Positions 5,548 through 30,223 of a stretch of DNA of 64,000 bases are shown here, piece by piece; position 1 is the stretch's first letter; each line of letters begins with the position of its first letter. The DNA comes from Chloroflexota bacterium (GTDB lineage: Bacteria; Chloroflexota; UBA11872; VXOZ01). A program made the position numbers and the translations under genes. Where the stretch lies: contig OY760183.1 of assembly GCA_963663275.1 (NCBI GenBank), forward strand, positions 32,001 to 96,000, written 5' to 3'. The notes beneath the pieces are model-generated. The model was not told where the DNA came from, did no database searches, and worked only from the letters and a program-made list of their open reading frames with translations.

Positions 5548-5577
5548 ATAATACACAACCATACGGTTGCATGTCAA
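5548..5577 (-). promoter_or_regulatory. Sigma70 promoter with overlapping operator for the arsR-VOC operon
   Basis: TTGACA-18 nt-TATTAT on the minus strand; palindrome CAACC-ATAC-GGTTG in the spacer; ATG only 8 nt downstream of the -10 box. Confidence 0.7.
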
Positions 5578-7325: not shown

Positions 7326-7353
7326 GGTCTAAAATCGGCACACCGCGAATCGC

Positions 7354-7746
7354 CTAGTCCAGAGCGGCTATCGCGTCGATTTCCACCAGCCAATCCGTAG
7401 ACGCCAGGGAGCCGATTTGCACCATGGTGGCGGCCGGGAAGGGGGGCTTGAGGATTTCGTTGCGCACCATGGTGATGGTTTCCCGGAAGCGGATGTCGGT
7501 GACGTACATGTTCATGAAGACGACGTTGTCGAACGTCGCGCCGCCGGCTTCCAGGAGCGACTGGATGTTGGCGAACACCTGGCGCACCTGCACCTCGATG
7601 TCGCCCGCGCCGACGATGCTGCCGTCGCCGGCCGTCGGCCCCTGGCCGGCAATGTAGAGCATCTCATTGGCTTGCACGCGCAGGGCCATCGAATACGGCG
7701 CGGCAGGCTGCGACATGCCCGCGCCCAGCAACGGTTCTTTCTTCAT
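7354..7746 (-). CDS. RidA/YjgF family protein
   Basis: PYS, LYIAGQ, FANIQSLLEAGG, LVEIDAIA. Confidence 0.88.
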   Translation of the reverse strand: MKKEPLLGAGMSQPAAPYSMALRVQANEMLYIAGQGPTAGDGSIVGAGDIEVQVRQVFANIQSLLEAGGATFDNVVFMNMYVTDIRFRETITMVRNEILKPPFPAATMVQIGSLASTDWLVEIDAIAALD

Positions 7747-8147
7747 GGTGTCTGCTCCTCTGCTCTCTTGATACTGTCATGGTTGTGCACACAACGGGCA
7801 TTATAGCCGCTGTGCCGGCATTCTCCAAGAGATGCGGCCGCGCGCCGGACAATGCGCGCACATTGGGCAGGTGGAGCGCTTTGAGCTTTGCATGGCTCAC
7901 GCCGGCGGTTAGTGCGACCGCATTGGGGCAATGCTGTCGCATGAGGCTATCGAGCACTGTACTACCCGTTCGTGCTGAGCCTGTCGAAGTATGAACGGGT
8001 AGTACAGTGCGGCACGATCGACCCGCCGCTCATCCCTTTCTCAAGATTCGGTGAAACGGCGGCATGCATTGCAAGTCAACGCGGCGCCACCGCAGCGTTG
8101 CCCCCTCACCCCGGCCCTCTCCCCAGGGAGACCTTTGCATAACTCTG

Positions 8148-9158: not shown

Positions 9159-9202
9159 GGCAACACCTTAGCAAAGTGTTGCACTTCGTTTGTGAGTCTA
9201 GG
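8169..9202 (-). mobile_element. IS30-family insertion sequence
   Basis: Imperfect TIRs GGATTCACATTTCAAGTGCAACAC / GTGTTGCACTTCGTTTGTGAGTCT; GAA duplicated at 8166-8168 and 9203-9205. Confidence 0.85.
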
Positions 9203-9458
9203 GAATCCAGACCGCATTTACAACTAAAAATAGCTTGTTTTCAATCCTTTGCACCCCCATCCCAACCTTCCCCCTCAATGGGGAAGGGGTTATGCAAAGG
9301 TCTCCAGGGGAGAGGGAGTCCCGTTGCGCCATTGGACGCGAAATTCAAAGTTCGCAGGAGGAAAGGGACGTGACCGCAAGCGCGCCGAAATTGGTACCAT
9401 GCGGAGTAGCGCGCGTCTACGGCGGCGCGCGCTGGCAATGCACATCAGGAGTATGACA

Positions 9459-11169: not shown

Positions 11170-11366
11170 ACCGCGCCGGAATTCGACCGGCGCCGTCGGC
11201 TCAAGGGGCCATGCCGACCGTGCTGTCATGCTGACCGCGCGTCCGTGCCAATCGCGCGGTCATGCCGGCCGTGCTGTCGCGCCAACCGCGCGTTCGCGCC
11301 GGCCGTCCGCTCTTCCCGCACGGTGGCGCCACCGTCTCACCGCAACAACCCGCCCGGAGGTACTCA

Positions 11367-12371
11367 ATGGGTTCGTTCACGCGCGCGCGGCGCGCATTCC
11401 TCGGTACGTTGATTGTCCTAACGGCGCTCGCTGCCGGCTGCGCCGTGCAGCCGGCCGCCGCGCCGGAGACTGCGGCGGCTCCGCCGGAGACCGCAGAGCC
11501 CGCGCCCACCGCGACGGCGGCAGCCAGTGCGTTTCCCCGCACGATTACGGACGGTTTGGGGAACGCCGTAACCATCCCGCAGCAGCCCCAGCGCATCGTC
11601 TCGCTTACTTTGGCCACGGACGAAATCCTGCTCTCGCTGGTGGACCCAGCCCGCGTGCGCGCCGTCACCTACCTGGCCGGAGACTCCATGTGGACGAACG
11701 TCAGCGAGCAAGCCAAGCAGGTCGAACACACCGTGCAGTCCGATCCGGAGCAGATCATCGCCCTGGAACCGGACCTCGTCCTGGCCGCCGTCTATAACAA
11801 TCCCGATCACCTCACGCTGCTCCGGGACGCCGGCGTGCCGGTGGTGGTGGTCTCGCTCTTCGATTCGGTCGATCGGGTGGCGGACAACATCCGTTTCGTC
11901 GCGCAACTCACCGGGGACGAGGCCCGGGCGGAGGAAATCATTGCCGCCATGGATGAGCGGCTCGCGGCCATCGAAGCGCAGGTGGCTGAGGCCGAGACGA
12001 AACCCCGGGTGTTGTTCTACACCGCCTTTGGCAGTTCCGCCGGCAAAGGCTCCACGTTCAGCGACATCGTGCGGCGCGCCGGCGGCGTCAACCTGGGCGA
12101 CGAGGCGCTGGGCGGCCCCTTTGGCGAGATTTCGCTGGAGAAGATCGTGGAACTCGATCCCGACGTGATCATCACCGACGAGTTCGCGCCGGAGGATAAC
12201 CCCCAGTGGCAGGAAGAATTCGCCAATCATCCCGCGCTGGCTAACGTGAGCGCCAAGCGGAACGGCCGCATCTATACCGTGCCCGCGCGCCACCTATCGA
12301 CGCTCTCGCACTATATCGTGGAGGGCGTGTACGACGTGGCGCGGGTGTTGCATCCCGATCTGGTGCAATGA
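11367..12371 (+). CDS. ABC substrate-binding lipoprotein, cobalamin/iron-siderophore (BtuF-like)
   Basis: Lipobox LAAGC, PQRIVSL, EQIIALEPDLVL, EKIVELDPDVII. Confidence 0.85.
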   Translation: MGSFTRARRAFLGTLIVLTALAAGCAVQPAAAPETAAAPPETAEPAPTATAAASAFPRTITDGLGNAVTIPQQPQRIVSLTLATDEILLSLVDPARVRAVTYLAGDSMWTNVSEQAKQVEHTVQSDPEQIIALEPDLVLAAVYNNPDHLTLLRDAGVPVVVVSLFDSVDRVADNIRFVAQLTGDEARAEEIIAAMDERLAAIEAQVAEAETKPRVLFYTAFGSSAGKGSTFSDIVRRAGGVNLGDEALGGPFGEISLEKIVELDPDVIITDEFAPEDNPQWQEEFANHPALANVSAKRNGRIYTVPARHLSTLSHYIVEGVYDVARVLHPDLVQ

Positions 12372-16026: not shown

Positions 16027-16851
16027 CTAGGGCTTCCGCCCGATGCCCTCGCCGTACGCGATGCCGGAAACCGCGCCGGGATGGTTCTTCCACTTCTCGT
16101 AGGCGTCGCGTATCCTATCGAAGAGCTTTGTGGTTGCCGCGCCGTACTTTATGGCCATGTCCACGTTGTCGGGCGCCAGGAACCATCTGGTGCCGCGCGT
16201 GTAGGCAACGGCAATGTCCGCGTGGGTGCTGTGGAGTTCGAAAGAAGCGGAGAGTTGCGTATCCTCAAATCCCGCGTCGGAGAGATGGGCCTTCAATTCC
16301 TTCCCCATCTGCGGGTGACCCTCGTCGGTCTCCACCACGTCCTGAAAGACTTCCCACGTCTCTTGCAGCACGCCGTAGTCGGGATACATGAAGCTGGAGC
16401 CGATAATCGCCTCGCGGCAGGCGATCATGCCGCCGGTTTTCAGGACACGCTTCGCCTCGGCCAGCACGGCGCCGGTATCCGGCACGTGCATGAGCAGGTT
16501 ATGGCAGTGGGCGACGTCGAAGGATTCATCCTCGAACGGCAGCGCGGTCACGTCGCCCACGTGGAAGACGGCGTTGCCGCACTCCTGCTCCTTGGCAGTG
16601 GCGCGCGCCCGCTCGATCGGGATTTCATCCATGTCGATGCCGTGCATCTCGCCCCCGGGCGCTACCGCCGCGGCGAGACCCACCGATATGGAGCCGGGGC
16701 CGCATCCAAGGTCGAGAATGCGCAAGCCGGGCTCGAGATGCGGCAGCAGATACGCGGCGCTGGTCTCCGCCTTCAGCCGCGCCTGATGCGCAAGTATCTC
16801 TTCGCCAAAGCCAATCGAATAGTCGGGTGTCGCCGACTCCGTACCTTCCAT
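16027..16851 (-). CDS. Class I SAM-dependent methyltransferase (paralog 2)
   Basis: ILDLGCGPG, LPFEDESFD, LKTGG; colinear with paralog 1. Confidence 0.88.
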   Translation of the reverse strand: MEGTESATPDYSIGFGEEILAHQARLKAETSAAYLLPHLEPGLRILDLGCGPGSISVGLAAAVAPGGEMHGIDMDEIPIERARATAKEQECGNAVFHVGDVTALPFEDESFDVAHCHNLLMHVPDTGAVLAEAKRVLKTGGMIACREAIIGSSFMYPDYGVLQETWEVFQDVVETDEGHPQMGKELKAHLSDAGFEDTQLSASFELHSTHADIAVAYTRGTRWFLAPDNVDMAIKYGAATTKLFDRIRDAYEKWKNHPGAVSGIAYGEGIGRKP

Positions 16852-17071
16852 ACACGCGCTCCTTTTGTGAGCATCAACCATTATATCACGTTTGCAGTTC
16901 GTTCAAAATAGCCCGCGGCGAAAAAATCCCCAGGCCGCGCCCGGGCGAGAACCGGCAGCGCGCCCTTGGATGAGCCGCCGCACCCCAGCGCCGCGCGTGT
17001 GTGACTATAATAGAGTCTGAGCGCGCCGCAGCGCGGCGAACCAATTTAATCGTACCGCTGGGGAGAAGCCA

Positions 17072-17773
17072 TTGCCACGGGATAAGGTCCTGATCATCGA
17101 GGACGACGACAACCTGCAAGAGGCGTTGCGCTACCGCCTGGAGCAGGACGGCTACAAGGTGCACAGCGCCCGGGATGGGGAAGAGGGGCTGGAACTGGCG
17201 CGGGAGACGCGGCCCGACATCATCATCCTCGACATCATGCTGCCCGTGCTGGACGGCCTGGAGGTCTGCCGCATCCTGCGCCAGGAAACCGCCGTGCCGG
17301 TCATCATGCTCACGGCGAAAGGCGAAGAGGTGGACCGGGTGGTGGGCCTGGAACTTGGCGCGGACGACTACGTGGTCAAGCCTTTCAGCACCCGCGAGTT
17401 GCTGGCGCGGATGCGCGCCGTGCGCCGCCGCGCCCGGCCGGGCGGCGACGCCGCTTCCCAGGCCGATGCGGCCGCCGTGCTGCGGGCCGGCGACCTGCGC
17501 GTGAACCAGACCAGCCACACCGCCACATTGGGCGACCGGACTCTGGCGCTGAAACCCAAGGAGTTCAGCCTGCTGGCGCTGCTCATGTCCAGCCCCGGCC
17601 GGGTCTTTACCCGCGACCGGATTCTGGAGCGCATCTGGGGCTTCGATTGGGTAGGCGACAGCCGCACGGTGGACGTGCACGTGCGGCGGCTGCGGGAGAA
17701 GATCGAAGCCGACCCCAGCGAACCGGCCCGCATCGTGACCGTGCGGGGCGTGGGCTACCGGTTTGAAGGATGA
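17072..17773 (+). CDS. phoB: OmpR/PhoB-family response regulator, probably PhoP/PhoB
   Basis: IIEDD, LDIMLP, GADDYVVKPF, TVDVHVRRLREK, VRGVGY; next to phoR and phoU; TATAAT near 17006. Confidence 0.8.
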   Translation: MPRDKVLIIEDDDNLQEALRYRLEQDGYKVHSARDGEEGLELARETRPDIIILDIMLPVLDGLEVCRILRQETAVPVIMLTAKGEEVDRVVGLELGADDYVVKPFSTRELLARMRAVRRRARPGGDAASQADAAAVLRAGDLRVNQTSHTATLGDRTLALKPKEFSLLALLMSSPGRVFTRDRILERIWGFDWVGDSRTVDVHVRRLREKIEADPSEPARIVTVRGVGYRFEG

Positions 17774-19569
17774 GATTTCCACGATCGCTGCATTGGCGCA
17801 TCACGCTGGCCTGCGCCGCGTTGATCGCCCTCACGCTCGGCGCGACGAGCATCTATCTCGTCACGTCCGTCCGCGGCGCGTACCTGGCGAACCTGGAAAC
17901 CCGCCTGGAACACGAGGCGCGCCTGGTCGCGGAAGCCAGCGCCCCCTACCTGGCCGGCCAGGCGGACGCGCCCACGCTCCAGGCGGCCAGCGAGCGCATG
18001 GGAGCAACCATCGACGCGCGCGTGACCCTCTACGCCCCTGACGGTACCGTGCTGGCCGATAGTTGGCAAGACCCAGCGGCAACGGCGAGCCAGGCCGTCC
18101 CGCCGGAGGCGCAACGCGCGCTGGACGGCGGCGTGGGCGTCAGCGCCCGGCGCGGGGGCGCCGCGAATGAGGACACGCTTCACGTGGCCGTGCCCATTGC
18201 CGCCCAGGACACCGTGCTGGGCGCGGCGCGGGTGGCGGCGCCGGCGGCGCAGGCTTACCCGAGCCTGAACCGCATCATCGCCGGTATCGCCGTGATCGGC
18301 CTGGTGGGCGCGGCGCTGGCGGCGCTGATCGGCTACCGTGCCGCCGGAGGCGCTTCCCGTTCGCTCGGCGCGCTTACCGAAGGCGCCCGCCAACTCGCCG
18401 CCGGCCAACTGGAATACCGCGTGCAGGCCCCGGACAGCCGCGAAATGCAAGAACTCGCCCAGGCCTTCAACCGCATGGCCGCCTCCCTGCGCGACGTGGT
18501 GCGCGACCTTTCGGTGGAACGCGGCAAGCTGTCGGCGGTGCTCGATACCATGGCCGACGGCGTGGTGGTCATCGACGGCAACGGCCGCATCGCGCTGGTG
18601 AACCACGCCGCCGAACAGATCCTCAACCTCACGCGCGGGGACGTCCTGGACCGCCGCTTCAGCGAGGCCATCCGCGACTACAGCCTGCAACAACTGGTGA
18701 CCCGCTGCACGGAGGAGCGCGCGGTGCAGCACGGCGAGGTGGAAATCCCCCAGTGGCGCCGCTATCTCAGCGTGATCACCACACCGCTGGCCGAGCACGG
18801 CGACGCCGGTATCCTGCTCACCATGCACGACCTGACGCGCATCCGCCAGGTGGAGACCACCCGCCGGGAGTTCGTGAGCAACGTTTCCCACGAACTGCGC
18901 GGGCCGCTGGCCGCGGTGAAAGGCCTGGTAGAGTCCCTGCAAAGCGGCGCGCTGAAGGATAAGAAGCGCGCGAAGGACTTCCTGCGCCGCATCAATAGCG
19001 ACGTGGACCGCATGGCCGCCATGGTGGACGAGTTGATGGAACTCTCCCGCCTGGAGAGCGAGCAGGCCGGCCTGGAACTCGCGCCGCTTGACCTGCGCCC
19101 GCTCATGGCCGAGCTTCAGGACGAGCACCGCCAGCGCGCGGAAAAGTCGAAGATCACGCTGGAGGTGACGCTGCCGGAACGCCTGCCGCGCGTGCGCGGC
19201 GATGAGGAGAAACTGCGCCAGGTGCTCGGCAACCTGCTGAACAACGCGTTCAAGTTCACGCCCAAGCACGGGCAAATCCTGCTGGCGGCGCAGGCGGAGA
19301 ACGGCGCGGTCCGCCTGCGGGTGACGGATACCGGCGTGGGCATTCCCCCCAAGCACCTGCCCCATGTCTTCGAGCGCTTCTATAAGGTGGACCGCTCGCG
19401 GCGCAGCGAGGGCTTCGGCCTGGGGCTGGCCATCGTCAAGCACGTGGTGCAGACCCACGGCGGCGAAATCGACGCGGATAGCGTGGAAGGCCAGGGCACG
19501 ACCTTTACGGTAACCCTCCCCGCCGCCCCCGACGACGACGCGCACGACCGTTCGCCCCTCGACACCTAA
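17770..19569 (+). CDS. phoR: Sensor histidine kinase PhoR-like (TM-Cache-HAMP-PAS-HisKA-HATPase)
   Basis: FVSNVSHELRGP, NAFKFT, DTGVGI, FERFYKVD, GLGLAI; PAS 'MADGVVVID'. Confidence 0.8.
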   Translation: MRFPRSLHWRITLACAALIALTLGATSIYLVTSVRGAYLANLETRLEHEARLVAEASAPYLAGQADAPTLQAASERMGATIDARVTLYAPDGTVLADSWQDPAATASQAVPPEAQRALDGGVGVSARRGGAANEDTLHVAVPIAAQDTVLGAARVAAPAAQAYPSLNRIIAGIAVIGLVGAALAALIGYRAAGGASRSLGALTEGARQLAAGQLEYRVQAPDSREMQELAQAFNRMAASLRDVVRDLSVERGKLSAVLDTMADGVVVIDGNGRIALVNHAAEQILNLTRGDVLDRRFSEAIRDYSLQQLVTRCTEERAVQHGEVEIPQWRRYLSVITTPLAEHGDAGILLTMHDLTRIRQVETTRREFVSNVSHELRGPLAAVKGLVESLQSGALKDKKRAKDFLRRINSDVDRMAAMVDELMELSRLESEQAGLELAPLDLRPLMAELQDEHRQRAEKSKITLEVTLPERLPRVRGDEEKLRQVLGNLLNNAFKFTPKHGQILLAAQAENGAVRLRVTDTGVGIPPKHLPHVFERFYKVDRSRRSEGFGLGLAIVKHVVQTHGGEIDADSVEGQGTTFTVTLPAAPDDDAHDRSPLDT

Positions 19570-19575
19570 GACAGT

Positions 19576-20300
19576 TTCAGAACCTGTCGAAAGGCGATGC
19601 CCCGCTCAGCCGTTCGCCCTGAGCCTGTCGAAGGGTGCCGCCGCGCTCAGCCGTTCGCCCAGAGCCTGTCGAAGGGTGAACGGCGGGTTGGTTGTGCCGC
19701 GCTGTCCTCCCCGTTCGCCCAGAGCCTGTCATATAGTGATGCCCCGCATAACCCGTTCGCCTTGAGCTTGTCGAAAGGCGATGCCCCCCACAGCCGTTCG
19801 CCCTGAGCCTGTCGAAGGGTGGCGCCCCCCACAGCCGTTCGCCCTGAGCCTGTCGAAGGGTGAACGGCGGGTTGGTTGTGCCGCACTGTACTCCCCGTTC
19901 ATACTTCGACGGGCTCAGCACGAACGGGGAGTACAGTGCTCACTTCCAATTCGACACCATTCGGGCTTGTGCCCCGTCTCACGGGTCTTAACCTCGTAGC
20001 GCGGGGGCTTGTCCCCCGCCTCGCACGTCTACACCTCGTTACACGGAGGCTTGTCCCCCGCCTCCCGATTCCGCACTGGATTCTGAATTGGGCAATCCCG
20101 GCAATTCCACCCGCCAAAATGATTGACCTTTCGTCACCCGGTGTAGGGGCACGACATGTCGTGCCCCTACACCGGGTGACGAACCATCCAGAGGCATCTT
20201 ACTCGTATCGCTCCACGCTGCGCTCGGAATGACACGTGCACACCCCTGCCTTCCCCCCTCACGCGCCTACACCCCGTTGCGCGGGGGCTTGTCCCCCGCC
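19576..20300. repeat. Large mixed REP cluster
   Basis: About seven copies of CCGTTCGCCCTGAGCCTGTCGAAGGG-like units in 19580-19865; also GTAGCGCGGGGGCTTGTCCCCCG, GTAGGGGCACGACATGTCGTGCCCCTAC (20143-20170) and CTCGGAATGAC units. Confidence 0.85.
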
Positions 20301-20304
20301 GCGA

Positions 20305-20348
20305 TTTCACACGGTGTTCATCCTGCGCTAACCCTCCGTACATGCCGC
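20305..20348 (+). promoter_or_regulatory. Candidate PHO-box array (four 11-bp direct-repeat units)
   Basis: TTTCACACGGT GTTCATCCTGC GCTAACCCTCC GTACATGCCGC in 11-bp register, upstream of the Zn-ribbon gene and phoU. Confidence 0.45.
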
Positions 20349-20419
20349 CCCTTTACGCTTGATATTAACGAATTATCAAAACGGAACGCGCGCGGGTGGC
20401 GCGCGGAGGAGAAGGGTCT

Positions 20420-20689
20420 ATGGCAAAGGCGGCGTTGGCGGAGAAGCGGCAGGACGACGGCGGCATATTGCGGTCGCTCTTTCCCGCGGACGAGCGGTCG
20501 CGGCCGTGCCCGCGCTGCGGCGAGGAGGCGCCCCAGACGCGGGATCGGGTCGTCGAACGCATCGTGGAGCATCCCCGCGTCATCGTGCGCGGCACCCAAT
20601 TCTGGCGCTGCCCCCGGTGCAACGCCATCAGCGGCCAGGAGTCCCGGGACTACGTGGAGCCAATTGAGTACATCACCGGCCAGTCGTAG
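20420..20689 (+). CDS. Small zinc-ribbon protein (YgiT/MqsA-like CxxC..CxxC)
   Basis: Two CPRC motifs; GGAGGAG RBS. Confidence 0.6.
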   Translation: MAKAALAEKRQDDGGILRSLFPADERSRPCPRCGEEAPQTRDRVVERIVEHPRVIVRGTQFWRCPRCNAISGQESRDYVEPIEYITGQS

Positions 20690-20874
20690 CGGCGGCGCGC
20701 GGGCAATCAACCGCGTTCCGGCGCGGGCTAGCCAAATGCGCGCAAAGAGTGCATGATAGTATATTGAAAAGGGGTACACCGCAGCATCGATGCTGCCGGG
20801 CGGCTGAACGTCAATGTCCAGTGGCTTGCCGGGCGGACGGCTTCCCCGGAGACGCAGCAGAGGGAGAGAGCAAC

Positions 20875-21537
20875 GTGGCGCGCACGAACGTCGAGATCCA
20901 GCTAGAAGAAATCCAGGATGGCGTCCTTGCGCTGGCGAGCATGGTGGAGAAGGCCATTGCGCACGCCATCGACGCCCTGCGGGAACGCGACCTGGAGGCG
21001 TCGCAAGCCGTGGTAGCCTTCGACGACGTGATCGACGAGAAGCGCTTCGTCATCGAGGAACGCTGCGTAGACCTGCTCGCCACCCAGCAGCCCGCTGCCC
21101 GCGACCTGCGCTGGGTGGTGGCGCTGCTCCACATCGCGGTCGAGTTGGAACGCATGGGCGACTATGCGGAAGGCATCGGCAAGATCAGCCTCATGATGGG
21201 CGACGAGCCGCCGCTCAAGCCGCTGATCGACATCCCGCGCATGGCGGACATGTCCATCAGCATGCTCCATCGCAGCATCGACGCCCTCGTCACCCGCGAC
21301 GTAGAACTGGCCCGGGAGGTGTGCGCCGACGACGATGAGGTGGACGCGCTCCACGAACAAATCTACCACGAGTTGCTGCTCTACATGATCCGAGATCCCC
21401 GCAGCATCCAACGGGCCACTTACTTGCTCTGGGTGACCCACGACCTGGAGCGCACCGCCGACCGCGCCACCAACATCGCCGAGCGCGTGATCTACCTGGT
21501 AACCGGCAAGATGCTGGACCTGAACCTCTCGAAATAG
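20875..21537 (+). CDS. phoU: Phosphate signalling complex protein PhoU
   Basis: ATQQPAARDLR, ELERMGDYA, DDEVD, LERTADRATNIAERVIY. Confidence 0.95.
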   Translation: MARTNVEIQLEEIQDGVLALASMVEKAIAHAIDALRERDLEASQAVVAFDDVIDEKRFVIEERCVDLLATQQPAARDLRWVVALLHIAVELERMGDYAEGIGKISLMMGDEPPLKPLIDIPRMADMSISMLHRSIDALVTRDVELAREVCADDDEVDALHEQIYHELLLYMIRDPRSIQRATYLLWVTHDLERTADRATNIAERVIYLVTGKMLDLNLSK

Positions 21538-21732
21538 GTCAGTTGACTACCATTGGAATCGGAAACAACCTCTCTGCGGTCTGGCTCAATCGCTTGGATA
21601 CATCCAATGGTGCCAACTCACCACGCCAATTCACTGGAAAGGGCATCAACGGCAAGAGTTCAAATTGGAACTGAAGGGCAAGTTCTTCCCATTCTTGCAC
21701 CATGTGACTCTTTCGAGTTGTAACGGTCGCAG

Positions 21733-22197
21733 TCACGACTCAAAACTTGCAAGAATACTGATTACTTCCTCCCTGAATTCTCGGCGGTAGACGCTCAACC
21801 TATCTAAGCGATCAAGCCTATCGGAGAATTCACTTCTCCATTCGGATTCAATCGTGACAGTTGACTTAATGGGATGCGGCGTGTCATCTTCCCCTTCCTT
21901 GTTCTCTGTTCGGATATTCATGTCAACCGAACTCTGGCCCGAATTACTGCTAGATTGCAGACTCATTACCCATGAATTCTTGAAGATCTTGAGTAAAGCC
22001 TCCCCAAGGTCCCAGTTCGTTCGAATCCACAACAATGCACAGACTCGAACCATCCACCTGTGCTTCAGCAGCCAAATTGATAACGTATAGATTGTGAGTT
22101 TTCCAAAGAACCAAACCCAGCGAGCGAAGACCAGCAGGACGAACGATGTGAACACTGAGAGTTCGCCCACTTTCCAATCCAAGAACGAAAAATCCAC
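21733..22197 (-). CDS. Hypothetical membrane protein in a low-GC islet
   Basis: AGGAGG RBS before GTG; hydrophobic N-terminus; AT-richer than the flanks. Confidence 0.45.
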   Translation of the reverse strand: MDFSFLDWKVGELSVFTSFVLLVFARWVWFFGKLTIYTLSIWLLKHRWMVRVCALLWIRTNWDLGEALLKIFKNSWVMSLQSSSNSGQSSVDMNIRTENKEGEDDTPHPIKSTVTIESEWRSEFSDRLDRLDRLSVYRREFREEVISILASFES

Positions 22198-22307
22198 TAT
22201 TCTCCTCCTGTTGCAATGGGGCCACTACTTATAGTTTGCATAGACACTTAAGATTATAGGGGCTCAAGTAAAGAGACGGAAAGCCACACATAGCAAGGAG
22301 ACTTCAC

Positions 22308-22703
22308 TTGAAGCGCGTGCTCTTCGTCTGCGTGCACAACGCCGGGCGCAGCCAGATGGCGGAGGCGTTTCTCCGAGACCTGGCCGGCGGCAAGGCCGAG
22401 GCGCGCTCGGCGGGGATGGCGCCCGGCGAGCGCGTGAATCCTATTGCCGCGCAGGTCATGGCCGAGCGCGGCGTCAGCCTGGCCGCGCACACGCCCAAAC
22501 TGCTGACGCAGGACCTGGCGGACTGGGCGGATAGGATCATCACCATGGGCTGCGCCATCGACGAGTACTGCCCGGCGGCCTTGCCGGACGTGGAGGATTG
22601 GGGCCTCCCCGATCCCAGCGGGCAGCCTATCGCCGCGGTGCGCGGCATCCGCGACCAGATCGAGGAGAAAGTCCGCTCGCTGCTCCGCGAAACGGATGCG
22701 TGA
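22308..22703 (+). CDS. arsC: Arsenate reductase (LMW-PTP family)
   Basis: VLFVCVHNAGRSQMAE, ITMGC, CP, DWGLPDP; AAGGAG RBS before TTG. Confidence 0.88.
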   Translation: MKRVLFVCVHNAGRSQMAEAFLRDLAGGKAEARSAGMAPGERVNPIAAQVMAERGVSLAAHTPKLLTQDLADWADRIITMGCAIDEYCPAALPDVEDWGLPDPSGQPIAAVRGIRDQIEEKVRSLLRETDA

Positions 22704-22725
22704 GGCCCCTGCCGCGCCGCGCCTG

Positions 22726-23451
22726 TCAGCTTGCCGACCGCCGCGTCTGCTCCGCCAGGTAGTCCGAAACCACGCTGCTGATCTGCTTGTGGATCTTCTT
22801 CGGGCTGGGCGTAGCGTCGATCATGTGGAAGCCGTATTCCCTGCCCAGCCGGTGGAAGTGCTTGCGCAGCGAGGCCTGGTACTTCAGGAAACTCTCGAAC
22901 ATGCTGCTGCCCATGGGCAGATCCATGCCGGATTCCCAGTAGTTCAGTTCGCCGTACTTTGTCAGGGTGCGGTGGAAGAGCACCTCCGGCTCGGCGTCCA
23001 GGAAGACGATCAGGTCCGGCTCCAGCGCGATGCCGAAGAGGCGTTTCAGCCACTTCAGGTCGGCCCCGCGCGCCAGGTCCCGCGCCATCAGCGTGTAGAT
23101 GTAGCGGTCCGCCAGCACCACGAAACCGGCCTGCATCGCCGGCACGAGCCGGTTCTCCAACTGGTCGGCAAGGTCGGTGGCGTAGAGCAGGCTCAGCGTG
23201 GTCTTGCCCAGCAGGTTGCCCCGCTTGGCCGCGGAGATCGCCTTGGCCATCAGGGCCGAACGGCGGATGCCCATCTCCAGCACGGCGTGCCCGCCCGCTT
23301 CCAGCGATTCCTTGAGCATCTGCGTCTGGGTGGAACGCCCGGAACAGTCCGAGCCTTCGATGACGATCAACGGCCCGGTGGGCTCCAGGTCGTCCAGGTA
23401 CGGCAGGCCGCAGCCATAGAAGCGCGCCCGCACCGGCAACATGGATGACAC
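22726..23451 (-). CDS. Thymidylate-kinase-like protein with degenerate P-loop (putative PPK3-type partner subunit); alternative start 23496
   Basis: LIVIEGSDCSGRST (Lys replaced by Arg), LADRYIYT, WESGMDL. Confidence 0.75.
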   Translation of the reverse strand: MSSMLPVRARFYGCGLPYLDDLEPTGPLIVIEGSDCSGRSTQTQMLKESLEAGGHAVLEMGIRRSALMAKAISAAKRGNLLGKTTLSLLYATDLADQLENRLVPAMQAGFVVLADRYIYTLMARDLARGADLKWLKRLFGIALEPDLIVFLDAEPEVLFHRTLTKYGELNYWESGMDLPMGSSMFESFLKYQASLRKHFHRLGREYGFHMIDATPSPKKIHKQISSVVSDYLAEQTRRSAS

Positions 23452-23565
23452 TCGCTCTTCTCCCTTGTCGGAATTGTCAACGTTCTCTATTTCCACATTT
23501 CCACCGGGAATGGCCCGGAGCCCGCCCCGCGCCCCCGGTAGCGCAGGTTTGTAACCTGCGCCGGG

Positions 23566-24291
23566 CTAGGCAACCACTTCCTGGGAGAGCAGGGGCTGTC
23601 TGGACGGCGGCTCGTAGTCCTCCAGCTTGTCCAGTACAACCTTTTGCACTTCCTCCCACGTCTCGTGGATCGTGCGCGTGGCGTCGATAACCACGAACTG
23701 CTCGCTGCGCGCCATCTGATCGTACTGCTCCTTGATCCTCCCTTGAAACAGCTTGAAGCTTTCCACCGGATCCAGGGAGAGGCCGGTATCCATGCCGGCC
23801 TCGTAGTACTTCAACGACGGGCGGCCAAACAAAATGCGCGAGATCGACACCTCCAACGGCGCGTGGAAGTAGAACGCGATGGTGGGTCGCACGGCAAAAC
23901 GATAGGTGTTGCGCACCCACTGGAGGTCGCAGCCCCGCGCCACGTCCCGCGCGTAGGCGGTGTAGACGTAGCGGTCGGCCAGCACGATGCAGCCGGCGTG
24001 AAGCGGCGGCAGAATGACCTTCTCGTAGCGATCGGCAAAATCGCAGGCGTGGATGAGGCTGAACGTGGTCGGCGTGAGCAACTCCTTGCGTTTCGCCCGC
24101 CGCGTCGCCTGCTTGACGATGGCCGACGAGTTCCACTCGGTATAGACCACCGGATACCCCTGCGACTGCAACCAGACGCGCAACAGGTGGAGTTGCGTGC
24201 TCTTGCCGGAACCGTCGCAACCCTCCACCACGATGAGGCGGCCGGGGTACTTCTTATTCATGCCCAGGCCGCGAATCTTCTTCAGAGCCAC
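23566..24291 (-). CDS. Thymidylate-kinase-like protein with intact P-loop (putative PPK3-type catalytic subunit); alternative start 24261
   Basis: LIVVEGCDGSGKSTQ, TEWNSS, FADRYE, LADRYVYT, YYEAGMD. Confidence 0.8.
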   Translation of the reverse strand: MALKKIRGLGMNKKYPGRLIVVEGCDGSGKSTQLHLLRVWLQSQGYPVVYTEWNSSAIVKQATRRAKRKELLTPTTFSLIHACDFADRYEKVILPPLHAGCIVLADRYVYTAYARDVARGCDLQWVRNTYRFAVRPTIAFYFHAPLEVSISRILFGRPSLKYYEAGMDTGLSLDPVESFKLFQGRIKEQYDQMARSEQFVVIDATRTIHETWEEVQKVVLDKLEDYEPPSRQPLLSQEVVA

Positions 24292-24400
24292 GTGCGGTTT
24301 CCCCCTTTCGTGCCCCCGCTTACCGTTCTCGCGAACGCTTCGAGCCGCGCGCCCGCTTGCGGCGAAGATGCCGGGCGGCCGGATGCGTCCCTCGCTCACT

Positions 24401-26080
24401 CTACCAGAGCGAATCGGCCTGATTCCCTCTCTCGCGTTCGCGCAGGCCGTCGAGATTAAAGTGTACACCAAATGCCGCTGCAATGTCAGTAAGCGTTGCC
24501 TGCGTCTCGCGGAATTCGCACACCGCGTCGGGATCCGCGGCCAGGCGCAGCGTTACCCGGCGGCCTTTGCCCGCAATTTCGCACCGCACCGCCTCTACCA
24601 GCCGCGACTCGCTGCGGTCCAGCGCCTCGCTCAGTTGCAGAATCGCGCCCAACCGGGTCACGGCCTCCGCGTCGCCCTTCGCCAGCAGGGCGCGGTACGC
24701 CGGCCGGCGCTTCAATTGCACGCCGTTGCCGTTGTGCGCGGCCACCAGGCTGGCGACGATGAGCAACTCCCGGTGAGTGAGGCCGTCGATGCCCGCGCGC
24801 GTGAGCAGATAGAAGCCGTGCTCGTCGTGATTGTAGTAATTCACGGCCACGCCCACGTCGTGGAGCAGCGCCGCGATGCGCAGCAGTTTGCGCGCCCCGG
24901 CGTCCAGCCCGTGGAGCGGCGCGAGTTGATCGAAGAGCGAGAGCGCCAATGCCGCCACGTGGCCCGCGTGGGCTTCGTCCACGTTGTAGTAGCGCATGAG
25001 GTTGGTGGCGCCGAAGAGCGCCGGATCCGGCACGCGCGGGTCGGCGCGTTCACCGCCCAGCACGTGATTGAGAAACAGCCCCTCGCGCAATCCCCGGCCG
25101 CTGATGGCCAGCGCACCGGCGCCGGTCGCCCGCGCCAGGCCGCACACCACCGCCGCGCCCGCCACGATGATGTCCGCCCGCTTGGTGGAAAGCCCGGGCA
25201 GTTTGCGCCGCTCCTCCAGGTTGAGCTTGCGCAGCATGGCGTAGATCTCTTCCACCGCGTCGATCGGGAGGATCATGCCGTGGAGGAGTTGGAGCGGATA
25301 ACCGGCCCGCCGCCGGTAGATCTTCGCCAGATTGCGCACCGTGCCGCCAATACCGATCAAGAGCGGCGTGCCGTTCTGTCCGAGCGCGTCCTGGAGTCCC
25401 GGCGCGGTCGCGGGGTTGGCGGCAATCGCGCGGGCCGCGCCTCCGGCGGCGTCGTGCTCCGCGCCGGCATCACCGTTCTCGCTTCCATCGAGCCAGGCAA
25501 GTGTCCGCAGACTGGCCCGGATGTGTTTCTCGAGCGTGCGAATCTGCTTGTTCGTCGCCCGATCGCGGTCCAGGAACGCGCCGGTGAGGGTGATCGCGCC
25601 CAAGGGCAGGCTGGCCAGGTGCGTGGCCACGCGCCGGCGCGTGCGCACGACCTGTATGCTGCCGCCGCCAATGTCCACGGCCACGCCATTGGCCGCCGCG
25701 GAACTATTGACCGCCGCCACGTAGTCGTAGTAGGCTTCCTGCTTGCCGGAGATGATGCGGACGGGCAGGCCGGTCTCGGCCTTGATGCGGGCCACGATTT
25801 CCGGCCCGTTGCGGGCGCGGCGCAGGGCGCTGGTGGCAACCCCGATCACGTGCGTCACCCGGTGCGACTCGCAGAAGCGCGCCAGCACCCGGCAGATTTC
25901 CAGCGTGCGCTGGACAGCTTCCGCCGTCAGGCAGCCCTCCGCGTCCAGTTGCTCGCCCAGCCGCAGCGTCTCGCGCAGTTCGTCCACCAGCTTGAACGCC
26001 CGGTCTTCATACACCTCCAGCAGCGCCAGGCGCGCTGAATTGGAGCCAATGTCGATGACGGCAACCCGTTCTCCGGCCAT
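24401..26080 (-). CDS. ppx: Ppx/GppA exopolyphosphatase with C-terminal HD domain
   Basis: IDIGSNS, ATSALR, SGKQEA, DIGGGS, GIGGT, GLREG, LLHDVG. Confidence 0.92.
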   Translation of the reverse strand: MAGERVAVIDIGSNSARLALLEVYEDRAFKLVDELRETLRLGEQLDAEGCLTAEAVQRTLEICRVLARFCESHRVTHVIGVATSALRRARNGPEIVARIKAETGLPVRIISGKQEAYYDYVAAVNSSAAANGVAVDIGGGSIQVVRTRRRVATHLASLPLGAITLTGAFLDRDRATNKQIRTLEKHIRASLRTLAWLDGSENGDAGAEHDAAGGAARAIAANPATAPGLQDALGQNGTPLLIGIGGTVRNLAKIYRRRAGYPLQLLHGMILPIDAVEEIYAMLRKLNLEERRKLPGLSTKRADIIVAGAAVVCGLARATGAGALAISGRGLREGLFLNHVLGGERADPRVPDPALFGATNLMRYYNVDEAHAGHVAALALSLFDQLAPLHGLDAGARKLLRIAALLHDVGVAVNYYNHDEHGFYLLTRAGIDGLTHRELLIVASLVAAHNGNGVQLKRRPAYRALLAKGDAEAVTRLGAILQLSEALDRSESRLVEAVRCEIAGKGRRVTLRLAADPDAVCEFRETQATLTDIAAAFGVHFNLDGLRERERGNQADSLW

Positions 26081-26307
26081 GCCTGCTCCTCGTCGTTCGG
26101 TCTCATCCCCTAATGTTGTCGCATTTACCTAATGAGAATAAAACTACGCTCGTTTCTCCGGTAGCGCAGGTTCGCACGGGAGGTGCGCGCAACCTGCGTC
26201 TTCCGTAGGGTCAGTCCATTCCACTCCCATTTTCCTTGTTCCGGCGGGGGACAAGCCCCCGCGCTACGTTAACGCGACAGCATTGGTGTCTTCTCCTGGC
26301 GCGGGTT

Positions 26308-27495
26308 TCACGGCGCGGCGGCCATGATCTCGCGCAGGCACTCGCGGAACTCGTCTCCGGTGAGACGCTCCCACAGCGCCGGAAACGTCTGGGCGTTCGT
26401 CCGCACCCGGTCGTCGCAGTGCGCCAGGTAGCCGCAGAGCGCCTCCCGCGCCGCAAGCGGGTAACGCGCGTCGTCCCCGGCGCGCTGCCACTTCTGCAGC
26501 AGTTTGCGCAGGGATTCACCGGCCACGTACGCGTCGTTCAGGTCGCCCAGGTGGTCTTGGGCCCGCTTGACGTCCTCGATTGCCGCTGCCGCCGGCGCGC
26601 TCAGGATTTCGCGCAGAAATTCCAGCGCGTAGCGCAGGCGCTTGCAGTCGATGCGCAGGTCGTGCAGCGTCTCGATGGAAGCGCCGTGCAGCGACGGGCC
26701 GTAGGCGAGCAGCCTCTCATAGCGGGCGGCCAGCAGGCGCGGCGCCGCCTCGGTTACCGCCGGCAGCGAGGGCGGAGCGGCTGCCGGCGCGTCCGCGACT
26801 TCCAGGCAGGCGGCTATCTTGCGCTTGGACACGCGGTAGCGTTTGCTTGCCAGATAGCGCAGCATCGCCTTGCGGGCCCGGGCGCGCCGCTTCCGCCAGC
26901 GCCGGGTGAGCGGGTCGAACGCCTCCTGAGTGCGCCCCGGCGCTGCCGCGCGGTACGCCTCCAGGTTCGCCAGCATCACGTCGCAGTCGCGCGCGGGGCC
27001 CAGGGCGCGCCCGATACGGCGCAGGTCCTTGCGCAGCCAGGCGGCCTGCTTCCTGGGCAGTGCGGGACGGAACAACTCCACCGCCGCGCGCATGCGGCGC
27101 ACGGCCACGCGCATGTCGTGCAGTTCCTCGATGTCGCTGCCGTCAATCGTCCCGGCTTCGCGCTTCACCATGCGGCCAAAGTGGAAGCGCAGCGTCTTGC
27201 GCGCCGCCTCCCGCGCCGTATCACCCCGCTCGAGGCCGGGACGATTCGACTTCTTCGACGCAGTCGGCGGCTTCGACCCAGTCGGCGTTCCCGATGCAGT
27301 CGGCGGCTGCGGTGAAATCGGTTGTCGGTTCGGCTTGGATGTCGGTGTAACGGCTCTTCTCTCAATTTCAAGTAAACGCGCGGGTGCGAAAAGAGACGCG
27401 GCGTTCCACGCGCTCCGCCGCTCCGCTAGCACAGGCGGCAAACCGGCGTTCACCAGGCGTCCAAGTGCAACCAAGCAATCCCTCGACCGTCCCAA
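26308..27495 (-). CDS. CHAD-domain (polyphosphate-binding) protein; start uncertain
   Basis: LHDMRVAVRRMR, LGPARDCDV, LHDLRIDCKRLRY, QDHLGDLND. Confidence 0.88.
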   Translation of the reverse strand: MGRSRDCLVALGRLVNAGLPPVLAERRSAWNAASLFAPARLLEIERRAVTPTSKPNRQPISPQPPTASGTPTGSKPPTASKKSNRPGLERGDTAREAARKTLRFHFGRMVKREAGTIDGSDIEELHDMRVAVRRMRAAVELFRPALPRKQAAWLRKDLRRIGRALGPARDCDVMLANLEAYRAAAPGRTQEAFDPLTRRWRKRRARARKAMLRYLASKRYRVSKRKIAACLEVADAPAAAPPSLPAVTEAAPRLLAARYERLLAYGPSLHGASIETLHDLRIDCKRLRYALEFLREILSAPAAAAIEDVKRAQDHLGDLNDAYVAGESLRKLLQKWQRAGDDARYPLAAREALCGYLAHCDDRVRTNAQTFPALWERLTGDEFRECLREIMAAAP

Positions 27496-27784
27496 TGGCG
27501 GATCCGGCCCGCGTACAGCCTTAAGCTACCAAGATCAGCGTGAGATTGCCAGAAATCTCGTGCCTCATGCGGCGCGTCTTCTTCCGCTGCGGCATTGCGC
27601 GCACGTCCCGCTGAGACGCACGGCCGGAGTCCGGTGACCGGCCTCGCGCTTTGCTTTGCGGTGGCGCTGGCGCATAGCAGGTGCTACGCTCCAGGGTAGT
27701 GGTGTCCTCTCGCGTGGGCTTTGCCTCGGGTCGGGCCATCGTGTGTGCGATTTCCAAACGCACCGTGACACGGGAGCAGGCGTC

Positions 27785-29743
27785 TTGACCCGAGAGCAGC
27801 GGCTGAGTTTCATAGGCATTAGTCTGGCGCTCTTCCTGGGGGCGCTGGATCAAACGATCGTGACCACGGCGCTGCCGCGCATCACGGAAGAGCTTGGCGG
27901 GCTGAACTACTACGCCTGGGTGGTAACGGCCTACCTGCTGGCATCGGTGCTGGGTCTGCCGCTCTTCGGGCGTCTGGTCGAACTCTTCCCGGCCAAATGG
28001 ATGCTGCTTGGCGCCGTGAGCGTCTTTCTGGCCGGCTCGGTGCTCTCCGGCTTGGCGCCGGGCATCGAGGCGCTGATTGCCTTTCGGGCGCTGCAGGGCT
28101 TTGGCGGGGGCGGCATCTTCGCCCTGTCGTTCACGTTGATCGGCCTGCTCTTTCCACCCCGCCAGCGGGGGCGCATGCAAGGCATGTTGGGCGGCGTGTT
28201 CGGCGTCTCCAGCGTGGCGGGGCCGTGGCTCGGCGGCCTCCTGACCGACCTGCTCTCCTGGCGCTGGATCTTCTACATCAACCTGCCGGTGGGTGTGATC
28301 GCCGTCGTCTTTCTCGTGGGCTTCATGCCCCGGCTGCAATCCGAGCAACGCGGCCGCCTCGACCTGCTCGGTGTGGCCATGCTCGCGCTCTGGGTAGTGC
28401 CGCTGGTGACCGCGCTCTCTTTGGGCGGCTCCGCCTACCCCTGGCTCTCTCCTCAGATTCTGGGCTTGGCCGCCATCGCGCTTGCGGGGCTGCTCGCATT
28501 CATCTGGTGGCAGCGGCGCAGTGTCGAGCCGCTGATCGAACTAAAGCTCTTCCAAATCAAGGTCTTTCGCTGGGCGGTGGTGGGCAGTTTCTTCTTTGGC
28601 GGCGCGTTCTTTGGCTCCCTGGTCTTTCTGCCGCTCTATCTCGTGAACGTGAAGGGCTTTTCGGCGACGAACTCCGGCCTTTCCATCATGCCGCTGGTCA
28701 TGGGCGTGGTGGCGGGCAGTACGCTGGGCGGCCAGTTGGCCAGCCGCATCGGCCGCTACAAGCTGCCGCTGGTTGCTTCCCTGTGCGTCGGCGTCATCGC
28801 CATTGCCGCCTTTGCCGTCAACCTGCGCGTCGCTACGCCGCTGTGGCAGGTGCTCCCGCTGATGGTGGTGATCGGCCTCAGCCTGGGGCCGTCGCTGCCG
28901 CTCTACACCCTCGCCGTCCAGAACGCCGTGCCCCGTTCCCGCCTGGGCGCCGCCACCAGCACGCTGCAATTCGTGCGCCAGGTGGGGTCTACGGCGGTCG
29001 TGGCGTTGCTGGGCACCGTGCTCGTCGCCACCGTCTCCGCCACCGCCGCGGCGCAAGCGCCGGCGGAGATGCGCGCGCACGTGGCGGGGCTGGGAGCGGC
29101 AGACGTGAACAGTGTCGGCAACCTCGCTACCGCGGTTGAGGCGCGGTTTGCCGTGCTCGAACAGCAGGCAGCGGCGGCGCTGCACGGCGATGAAAGCGCG
29201 CGCCGGGCGCTGCTGGCAGACCCGGCGCTGCCGCCGGCGCTCGCGCCACGCCTGGAATCCGGCAGCGTCCGTGAGCAGGTACGGCTGCGTTTGGCGCGGG
29301 CGCTCACGCAAGTCGAGGCGGCGCTGGCAGGTGACGCCGCCGCCCGCGACGAGGCGCTGCGGAATCCGCTTGTCCCGGAAGTGATTAAGCCGGCGCTGCA
29401 AGATCCGCCTGCCAGCGCCGCCGCGCGCGCGGAAGTCCTGCAGACGGCCCACCGGCGCATGCAGGCTCAGGAAGAGACGATCGTCAGCGATGCGCTGGCG
29501 CAGGCAGTCTCCCAGATGCAAGCGGAACTGCGCCGCCGGGCGGCCGCGGTAGCCGGCGCGCTCACCGTCGCGTTCAATACCGGCATTACCGCGGGTGTGA
29601 AGCGCGTCTACACTATCGCTACCGGTTTGATTCTCGTCAGCTTCCTGGCCGCGTTGCTGCTCCCGGACGTCGCTTTGGGAGCGGCGCCGCCCGCGCAAAG
29701 CGAGCATACCCCGGCCCCGCCTGATGGCGCCGCTGGCGAATGA
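27785..29743 (+). CDS. DHA2/EmrB-QacA-type 14-TM MFS efflux transporter with a large loop before the last TM
   Basis: LGALDQTIVTTALP, WVVTAYLL, FRALQGFGGG, WRWIFYINLP. Confidence 0.88.
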   Translation: MTREQRLSFIGISLALFLGALDQTIVTTALPRITEELGGLNYYAWVVTAYLLASVLGLPLFGRLVELFPAKWMLLGAVSVFLAGSVLSGLAPGIEALIAFRALQGFGGGGIFALSFTLIGLLFPPRQRGRMQGMLGGVFGVSSVAGPWLGGLLTDLLSWRWIFYINLPVGVIAVVFLVGFMPRLQSEQRGRLDLLGVAMLALWVVPLVTALSLGGSAYPWLSPQILGLAAIALAGLLAFIWWQRRSVEPLIELKLFQIKVFRWAVVGSFFFGGAFFGSLVFLPLYLVNVKGFSATNSGLSIMPLVMGVVAGSTLGGQLASRIGRYKLPLVASLCVGVIAIAAFAVNLRVATPLWQVLPLMVVIGLSLGPSLPLYTLAVQNAVPRSRLGAATSTLQFVRQVGSTAVVALLGTVLVATVSATAAAQAPAEMRAHVAGLGAADVNSVGNLATAVEARFAVLEQQAAAALHGDESARRALLADPALPPALAPRLESGSVREQVRLRLARALTQVEAALAGDAAARDEALRNPLVPEVIKPALQDPPASAAARAEVLQTAHRRMQAQEETIVSDALAQAVSQMQAELRRRAAAVAGALTVAFNTGITAGVKRVYTIATGLILVSFLAALLLPDVALGAAPPAQSEHTPAPPDGAAGE

Positions 29744-29883
29744 CGGCGTCGCAGAGGTACGACCGTTTCGCAGATCAGTGACCGCGTCACAGACGTATGG
29801 CTCGCCTGGCGTTGGCGGCATGTGCCTGGAATCATGACGGCGGCGCGCCGTGGATATGCTACAATTGGAAAGGCAACCGTCAA

Positions 29884-29955
29884 GCCGACGTAGCTCAGTG
29901 GTAGAGCAATGGTTTCGTAAACCATAGGCCGCCGGTTCAAATCCGGCCGTCGGCT
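29884..29955 (+). tRNA. tRNA-Thr(CGT), CCA not encoded
   Basis: Acceptor GCCGACG/CGTCGGC, anticodon arm ATGGT-TTCGTAA-ACCAT, TTCAAAT T-loop; TGcTACAAT extended -10 upstream. Confidence 0.95.
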
Positions 29956-30223
29956 CCTCCGTGTATGGATACTGCCGAGTGAAGCAGCGCATTCGCCGGG
30001 CTCGTCGCGAGGCGCTGCTTCTCTATTGGGCGCTGGCGCCGCCGCGACTGGGCGCCCGCGCCACGATTGGGTGTCTGCGCCGCGACTGGGCGTCTGCGCC
30101 ACCGCGTCAGGACGCCGGCCTTTGGGAAGCATCGTGGGAGAACACGTGAACGTGGTATCGTCCGGTACGTGGGAACGCCGCTCCCGCCGTACCCGCCTTG
30201 CGCGCCGGCGCTAGTCCAGCGCC

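Follow-up and report, generated by a model that had tools for sequence, protein, structure and literature searches.

What do two adjacent genes of thymidylate-kinase fold do when they share an operon with genes of polyphosphate metabolism: do they phosphorylate deoxythymidine monophosphate (dTMP), as their fold would suggest, or do they act on polyphosphate? Polyphosphate is a store of phosphate and energy, and to our knowledge there are many genomes for which no enzyme of its synthesis or use is known. The question is raised by a locus in a 64,000-nucleotide stretch of DNA from a Chloroflexota bacterium (positions 32,001 to 96,000 of contig OY760183.1, assembly GCA_963663275.1; this whole stretch is hereafter the window, and coordinates refer to it unless another record is named). 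Here a CHAD-domain gene, a Ppx/GppA-family gene, and two paralogous kinase genes, called A and B below, follow one another at positions 22726-27495. From sequence comparison and gene context, we consider it probable that A and B encode a bacterial PPK3-type polyphosphate kinase, in which A would be the catalytic subunit and B a diverged partner with little or no activity that assembles with A and activates it.

The precedent for such a pair is PPK3, a third type of polyphosphate kinase defined by Hofmann et al. (JBC 2026; PMC12995831), and what follows in this paragraph is drawn from the abstract and main text of that paper. In Sulfolobus acidocaldarius, saci_2019 (encoding cPPK3) and saci_2020 (encoding rPPK3) are found downstream of ppx, and genes for SixA and a CHAD protein belong to the same operon. 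Their products form SaPPK3, a heteromeric polyphosphate kinase that works reversibly, behaves as an alpha2-beta2 tetramer, prefers to convert ADP and polyphosphate into ATP, and is less active with GDP. Saci_2019 alone reaches about one tenth of the holoenzyme activity, and neither Saci_2019 nor Saci_2020 made deoxythymidine diphosphate (dTDP) in 31P nuclear magnetic resonance assays. The arginine of the DRX motif is replaced in rPPK3, which was given as the reason for the inactivity of Saci_2020. The PPK3 clade of the dTMP kinase (dTMPK) superfamily was described as consisting mainly of bacterial paralogs whose gene neighbors include PPX and CHAD; the abstract speaks of PPK3 in "a few bacteria," and the survey covered 47,545 GenBank genomes. 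STK_15430 of Sulfurisphaera tokodaii was named as a cPPK3 homolog. Our own full-text literature searches found no characterized bacterial PPK3 and no other paper on cPPK3 or rPPK3.

In the window, which has a G+C content of about 64%, all four genes lie on the minus strand in the order CHAD-ppx-A-B. The CHAD-domain gene (26308-27495), which belongs to a polyphosphate-granule-binding family, matches PF05235 (2.7e-61; residues 102-330, model positions 3-228 of 228); its start codon is uncertain, as the first ~25 residues of the longest open reading frame (ORF; 27420-27495) cannot be aligned among related loci. It is followed by a gene for a Ppx/GppA-family exopolyphosphatase with an HD-like domain III (24401-26080; PF02541, 2.8e-53; PF21447, 1.5e-24), whose TIGR03706 score of 280.3 is below the cut-off of 307, such that Ppx and GppA are indistinguishable for this gene. 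The two kinase genes, the cPPK3-like A (23566-24291; 241 amino acids) and the rPPK3-like B (22726-23451, or to 23496), both match the thymidylate-kinase family PF02223 (2.4e-21 and 8.6e-20, respectively). Gene A starts with GTG at 24291, preceded by a purine-rich ribosome-binding site (GAAAGGGGGA); this start is kept in 10 related loci, and the 241-residue protein P0001 is identical to A. For gene B, the start may be GTG 23451, ATG 23442, or GTG 23496, and AAGGGAGAAGAG is found 8 nucleotides upstream of the first of these.

Translation of the minus strand places an intact Walker A motif, GCDGSGKST, in A (24196-24222) and its counterpart GSDCSGRST in the P-loop of B (23329-23355), as well as EAGMD in A (23788-23802) and ESGMD and DRY in B (22921-22935 and 23101-23109). 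Neither protein matches the PPK2 family PF03976 at E values up to 0.01. Pfam detected no PPK1 or PPK2 domain in 122 of the 130 window ORFs of at least 150 amino acids (the other eight are shadow ORFs that overlap the four genes), and phmmer searches with E. coli PPK1 and a PPK2 seed gave no match among the stop-to-stop ORFs of at least 70 amino acids in the 64-kb window. An initial annotation of this DNA, made from its sequence alone, had described four co-oriented genes of these families, one intact and one degenerate P-loop, and a window without ppk1 or ppk2; all of this agrees with the profile matches and translations.

The gene arrangement resembles that of S. acidocaldarius. In both cases, two adjacent dTMPK-fold paralogs lie directly downstream of ppx with a CHAD gene in the operon, and the order of ppx, A, and B is that of saci_2018, saci_2019, and saci_2020 as given in the main text of PMC12995831. 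The window pair differs from that published description in being bacterial, in an operon without a SixA gene, in a CHAD gene placed upstream of ppx instead of after the second kinase gene, and in adjoining a gene for PhoU and a PhoR/PhoB-like pair.

Sequence similarity separates both proteins from canonical thymidylate kinase (Tmk). With the dTMP-kinase equivalog model TIGR00041, A (82.0) and B (79.8) both score below the cut-off of 83.25. Among proteins of solved structure, the best relative of both is STK_15430 (PDB 2plr, 4nzy, 4rzx, and 5h70): A matches 2plr/5h70 at 2.3e-59 (204 bits vs. 77 for the best canonical Tmk) and B matches 2plr at 1.1e-38 (136 bits vs. 45). When scored by family profiles, STK_15430 obtained 278.7 bits from the A-family profile and 211.2 bits from the B-family profile, which places the archaeal catalytic subunit nearer to A; the best canonical Tmks reached 87 and 83 bits under these two profiles. 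A and B are 37% identical to each other (82/219), and their identities to E. coli Tmk are 23% and 27%, values that lie within the ranges reported in the text of the preprint 10.1101/2024.08.28.610084.

The same separation is seen in a maximum-likelihood tree of 75 rows, which comprised A and B of the window, the A and B proteins of 16 of the 80 related loci, 35 cluster representatives, five canonical Tmks (E. coli and four plasmid records), and one Clostridium Tmk-like protein. The representatives were a manual selection from the 64 that were full-length and of a single domain among 150, which had been drawn from a search with B that matched 6578 proteins at E <= 0.001, 1161 at 1e-10, and 141 at 1e-30. 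The five canonical Tmks split from the other 70 rows with a support of 99/92. A lies inside a clade of 27 rows (97/91) and B inside a clade of 35 rows (90/85), with a similar branching order of taxa in the two clades. At the base of the B clade are P0285 and P0293, in which an A-type N-terminal half (Lys P-loop, EWNSS) is joined to a B-type C-terminal half (YWESGMD); these proteins may be intermediates between both subunit types. P0382, with EQY and a Lys P-loop, also sits at this base, on a long branch. P0376, which has NKY for DRY, came up when the 150 representatives were examined for types without the DRX arginine; considered as Saci_2020-like, it was set aside, being a Margulisbacteria/Obscuribacterales type placed within the A clade. 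Plasmid records, searched with tblastn, contained only canonical tmk-like genes (16 records, identities of up to 35%), five of which served as outgroups or for comparison.

The residues that distinguish the two subunits were identified from an alignment of 200 A-family and 191 B-family sequences with E. coli Tmk. At the position of the EP motif (EPGGT in E. coli), the A family has an invariant EWNSS and the B family Gly-x-Arg-Arg-Ser, so that the two EP-motif residues read EW in A and GI in B of the window; REPGG was present in three of the five canonical Tmks examined. The columns of E. coli Phe74 and Arg78, which we take to be dTMP-binding residues, hold His71 in A and Tyr87 in B, and Phe in A and Leu/Phe in B, respectively. 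Seven residues of A are conserved at 0.99 or above among the 200 relatives, namely, the P-loop Lys20 (0.99), Asp96-Arg97-Tyr98 of the DRX motif (DRY), Arg142, and the lid residues Arg147 (1.00) and Lys151 (0.99). The pattern E[AS]G[MLIVA]D is carried by 199 of the 200 A-family and all 191 B-family sequences and by none of the five canonical Tmks; the initial annotation, too, had not associated this motif with canonical Tmk. It sits in a lid insertion that is common to A and B and absent from E. coli Tmk. STK_15430 carries the signature of A, with GxDGSGKS, EWNSS, His at the Phe74 column, SDRYE (including the equivalent of Arg78 of A), DRY, and E-A-G-x-D, and is unlike A in coming from an archaeal thermoacidophile and in having Lys at the column of Arg147. 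Judged from these residues, A is predicted to have the full catalytic set of a P-loop kinase with the dTMP site gone.

In B, the P-loop lysine is replaced by Arg36 in all 191 sequences. The column of Arg78 of A (1.00) holds Gln94 (0.81), and the lid positions of Arg147 and Lys151 hold Tyr163 (0.64) and Asp/Asn167 (0.81; Asn167 in the window). The conserved basic positions of A that are not basic in B include Lys50, Arg/Lys54, 55, and 58, Lys59, Arg78, Arg147, Lys151, Lys170, and Lys177. B retains Arg121, Arg125, and Arg158 together with the DRX arginine (Arg113 of DRY, 1.00 of 191). From these substitutions, B looks like an impaired partner of A. The pair shares with SaPPK3, as described in PMC12995831, one paralog with a full catalytic set and one impaired paralog, the loss of the EP motif, and sequence identities in the same ranges. 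The lesion itself differs from that published description: B keeps the DRX arginine and has the Lys-to-Arg change in the P-loop instead.

The pair is conserved well beyond the window. When two peptide patterns derived from the A alignment were run against 185,579 species genomes, at least 599 stretches matched, at least 533 of which were confirmed by tblastn, and the counts that follow refer to the best 80 of these confirmed loci. They come from seven phyla: Acidobacteriota (31 loci), Bacillota (24), Chloroflexota (12), the archaeal Methanocellaceae (four), Bacteroidota (four), Ignavibacteriota (three), and Armatimonadota (two). Among these loci, those nearest to the window come from metagenome-assembled genomes of Chloroflexota, whose gene A products are 91-95% identical to that of the window. 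B directly follows A on the same strand in all 80 loci (79 by script; L043 fits on inspection, the discrepancy being an artifact of ORF extension). The distance matrices of A and B are strongly correlated (r = 0.93 for 78 loci), and none of 999 permutations gave a value as high. A and B are inherited as a unit.

Linkage to polyphosphate genes is frequent in these loci. A full-length Ppx gene is adjacent in 62 of 80 loci, and in 45 of the 52 that extend for 3 kb or more to either side. For CHAD, the count is 35 of 80; this figure is probably too low, as the profile derives from CHAD proteins of Chloroflexota. PPK1 was found in none of the fetched flanks. Arrangements were examined in ten sample loci, from which 74 of 125 ORFs were analyzed with Pfam (A, B, and short or overlapping ORFs were excluded). 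In this sample, the order is PPK2-PPX-A-B in Armatimonadota, CHAD-SixA-like-PPX-A-B in Methanocellaceae, PPX-A-B-PpxIII-only in Sulfoacidibacillus, and CHAD-A-B-PPX in Ignavibacteriota. In about 19 of the 24 Bacillota loci, B is followed by a small gene whose product is confined to Ppx domain III. The coding start of B abuts or overlaps the stop of A outside Chloroflexota and Armatimonadota, and a spacer is present in the window and its relatives. Separately, a CYTH-domain (triphosphate tunnel) gene is immediately followed by a lone divergent Tmk-like gene, annotated as a hypothetical protein, on the Clostridium estertheticum plasmid NZ_CP086250.1 (L086, 3224-4642), which is another phosphate-polymer context for the Tmk fold.

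In several of the 150 cluster representatives found with B, the components are joined in one chain. P0241 consists of an A domain followed by a B-like domain, and P0256, P0265, P0291, and P0359 combine A with a degenerate B-like domain and with Ppx domain III, in the order in which the corresponding genes stand in Bacillota. These fusions are the best available evidence, at the level of protein architecture, that A, B, and Ppx domain III may act together. The 444-residue P0135 was dropped as an A-B fusion, as its linker and C-terminus look out of frame and it is likely a frameshift artifact. Two further cluster representatives have a PPK3-like kinase domain in other company: P0365 (1610 amino acids) carries an inorganic pyrophosphatase domain, and P0379 (794 amino acids) has an N-terminal SPX domain and DUF2252.

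Several findings weigh against A and B forming a PPK3. B keeps the DRX arginine, whereas the replacement of this residue is the hallmark of rPPK3 in the main text of PMC12995831; it is thus possible that B is active, or that it is not orthologous to Saci_2020. The gap between A and B is about 70-115 nucleotides, varying with the start chosen for B, and there is no translational coupling in this lineage. The link to a characterized enzyme runs through a single S. tokodaii chain, STK_15430. In addition, six of the 80 loci have PPK2 in the fetched flanks, at a distance of a few kb from the pair, such that the PPK3-like genes are no simple substitute for PPK2. Five of these six loci belong to Acidobacteriota, and in the sixth (L013 of Armatimonadota, 4780-9675) the PPK2 gene stands directly upstream of PPX-A-B in an operon-like arrangement. 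The retained arginine would also fit a kinase that is linked to polyphosphate with a different chemistry or division of labor, in which B provides a second active site or a nucleotide- or polyphosphate-binding site (Arg P-loop and DRY), or in which another acceptor such as AMP or GDP is used. B has kept DRY, Arg121, Arg125, and Arg158, and its P-loop arginine is invariant and not decayed, which argues for a conserved phosphate-binding role; P0285 and P0293, at the base of the B clade, still have the P-loop lysine and EWNSS, and SaPPK3 accepts GDP at reduced activity according to PMC12995831. Nevertheless, B is without equivalents of Arg78, Arg147, and Lys151 of A, and its rate of evolution exceeds that of A (mean p-distance 0.447 vs. 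0.325). A change of the Walker A lysine to arginine generally abolishes phosphoryl transfer in P-loop enzymes. On balance, we regard this alternative as rather unlikely.

Two other explanations appear far less plausible. That one or both genes are genuine thymidylate kinases, with the proximity of ppx and CHAD being incidental, would agree with the PF02223 matches, the narrow failure (1-3 bits) at the TIGR00041 cut-off, the naming of close homologs as dTMP kinase in databases, and the first publication of STK_15430 as an unusual thymidylate kinase (cited in PMC12995831). It is very improbable given the loss of the EP motif, the replacement of both presumed dTMP-binding residues in A and B, a clade separate from the five canonical Tmks, the pairing of A and B in every one of the 80 loci with strong linkage to ppx, and the report in PMC12995831 that Saci_2019 and Saci_2020 make no dTDP; canonical tmk, moreover, stands beside holB in the two records examined, which is not the case here. 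We likewise give little credence to the idea that A alone is the kinase and B an independent protein, such as a phosphate or polyphosphate sensor that does not bind A. The residual activity of Saci_2019 alone (PMC12995831) and the spacer between the two genes in this lineage would be in keeping with such independence, but the invariant adjacency, the co-divergence of A and B, the natural A-B fusions, and the overlapping or abutting coding regions in other phyla all speak for a joint function.

If A and B do form a PPK3, ATP or ADP would bind at the P-loop of A as in dTMP kinases, and polyphosphate would take the place of dTMP. A would then move the terminal phosphate reversibly between the end of the polyphosphate chain and ADP/ATP, and B would pair with A, stabilize the active assembly, and activate A. 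By analogy with the Sulfolobus enzyme, the pair may mainly form ATP from ADP and polyphosphate and build polyphosphate only at a high ATP/ADP ratio. Ppx would trim polyphosphate by hydrolysis, and the CHAD protein would bind to or decorate polyphosphate granules. The adjacency of PhoU and a PhoR/PhoB-like pair in this Chloroflexota lineage suggests a link to phosphate status. We infer the reaction, its preferred direction, the stoichiometry, the heteromer, and the Pho control from the Sulfolobus work and from gene context.

Comparison with other known systems helps place the pair. Canonical dTMP kinase (E. coli Tmk, b1098; TIGR00041) shares with A and B the P-loop kinase fold, the DRX motif, the lid region, and PF02223. 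A and B differ from it in their low identity (23-27%), the absence of the EP motif, the E(A/S)GMD lid insertion, their separate clade, and their context of polyphosphate genes in place of holB. The two-domain class II PPK2 (for example, P. aeruginosa PA3455) is, like PPK3, a polyphosphate-dependent nucleotide kinase in which an inactive module accompanies an active one and is thought to drive oligomerization and activation, as discussed in the main text of PMC12995831; it differs in belonging to another family, in having both modules fused in one chain, and in using AMP or GMP as the acceptor. In the E. coli ppk-ppx operon, a polyphosphate kinase gene adjoins ppx as it does here, but that kinase is PPK1, which is unrelated in fold, and its gene precedes ppx.

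The locus is a new bacterial example of a published system and not a new system, as bacterial occurrence was already predicted in PMC12995831. The initial annotation had proposed that the pair is misannotated and of PPK3 type, with reference to a report of a Tmk-annotated Sulfolobus pair beside ppx. That report is PMC12995831, and the proposal is supported by similarity (the best solved relative is an archaeal cPPK3 homolog), by the tree (A and B fall apart from the five canonical Tmks), and by synteny (homologs are linked to ppx and CHAD); as a new idea it does not stand, given the bacterial PPK3 operons already predicted in that paper. Four points go beyond its main text: the at least 533 species genomes with matching loci, a second subunit with an invariant Arg P-loop and a retained DRX motif, Ppx domain III as a recurrent third component in a separate gene or a fusion, and the Pho neighborhood in Chloroflexota. 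If the assignment is true, two genes per genome are mislabeled as dTMP kinase across hundreds of bacterial species, and a polyphosphate kinase of common soil lineages (Pyrinomonadaceae, Chloroflexota, and Bacillota) escapes those inventories of phosphorus cycling in which ppk1 and ppk2 alone are counted. A mesophilic bacterial PPK3 could be of practical use for ATP regeneration, and the different lesion in B would offer a direct test of the role of the second subunit.

A bolder reading, which we put forward only tentatively and think more likely to be wrong than right, is that these loci represent a common and widespread PPK3 of bacteria and Methanocellaceae that is unlike the Sulfolobus enzyme. 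Here B, with its invariant Arg P-loop and intact DRX motif, would be no inert scaffold but a conserved phosphate- or polyphosphate-binding module that senses or holds the polymer or a nucleotide, often together with Ppx domain III, and the system would be under Pho control in Chloroflexota. In that event, PPK3 would be present under the label dTMP kinase in at least 533 of the scanned species genomes, including those of soil Acidobacteriota and Chloroflexota.

The neighborhood of the operon bears on the possible Pho connection. A PhoU gene (20749-21537, plus strand) is convergent with the operon and passes its equivalog model (TIGR02135, 194.7 vs. a cut-off of 130.25; PF01895, 1.3e-44). Further away on the plus strand are genes for an OmpR-family response regulator (17072-17773) and a PAS/HisKA histidine kinase (17770-19569). 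PhoB is among the best matches of the regulator, and PnpS and PhoR are among those of the kinase. The scores are all below the cut-offs (PhoB TIGR02154, 247.6 vs. 296.2 for the regulator; PnpS, 364.8 vs. 400, and PhoR TIGR02966, 300 vs. 334.2 for the kinase), so that the assignment is tentative and the pair is best called PhoB/PhoR-like. Thus, of the phoB/phoR/phoU neighbors named in the initial annotation, phoU holds and the other two stand only in this weaker form. Among the 80 loci, PhoU and a kinase/regulator pair adjoin the operon only in Chloroflexota, where they do so in all 12. A low-molecular-weight phosphatase/ArsC-like gene (22308-22703, plus strand; PF01451, 8e-24), convergent with B, is found at the same position in all 12 related Chloroflexota loci. 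On the other side of the operon, a gene assigned by Pfam to an MFS transporter diverges from the CHAD gene at 27656.

Upstream of the CHAD gene, alignment of the intergenic region revealed a promoter-like block of 38 nucleotides on the minus strand (27516-27553; TCTGGCAATCTCACGCTGATCTTGGTAGCTTAAGGCTG), in which a pair of AATCT/GATCT repeats set 11 bp apart precedes a -10-like TAGCTT. Of the intergenic region, it is the main part that can be aligned over all 12 sequences (the window and 11 related Chloroflexota loci), and the intergenic DNA upstream of it cannot be aligned. Its pattern occurs once in the window, vs. 0.03 expected, and in its strict form in six of 12 related loci. Its sequence makes the block a candidate promoter to which an OmpR-family regulator could bind, possibly at a Pho box. 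The 11-bp-spaced repeat was seen upstream of no other gene in the window, which leaves gene adjacency as the support for Pho control. As for an internal promoter, the sole sigma-70-like site found (24489-24460) was rejected, being at chance level (one found, 1.0 expected) and unconserved.

Other features of the window were noted as well. Between the histidine kinase and PhoU genes is a 175-residue ORF (20229-20756, plus strand) with no family match, and the related locus L002 has a small ORF in the same place (11198-11506), also without a family match. Between the PhoU and ArsC-like genes, a 770-bp stretch (21538-22307) has a G+C content of 46.8%, vs. at least 62% in its flanks, and is missing from all 12 of the related Chloroflexota loci. 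The stretch, which resembles a recent insertion, includes an orphan ORF of 154 residues (21733-22197, minus strand) without a match in Pfam, NCBIfam, or PADLOC. The Rfam scan of 16500-30000 gave one sub-threshold match and one tRNA gene and nothing else; the tRNA gene (29884-29955, plus strand; RF00005, 77.7 bits) lies just beyond the MFS transporter gene. Farther out on the minus strand, the window contains two transposase genes (8148-9158 and 44027-45160), one IS30-like (HTH_38 and rve) and one IS481-like (rve, LZ_Tnp_IS481), and a gene for a Fic/DOC-domain protein (47490-48674) that matches the PADLOC SoFic model at 1.5e-114 and is a candidate anti-phage defense gene.

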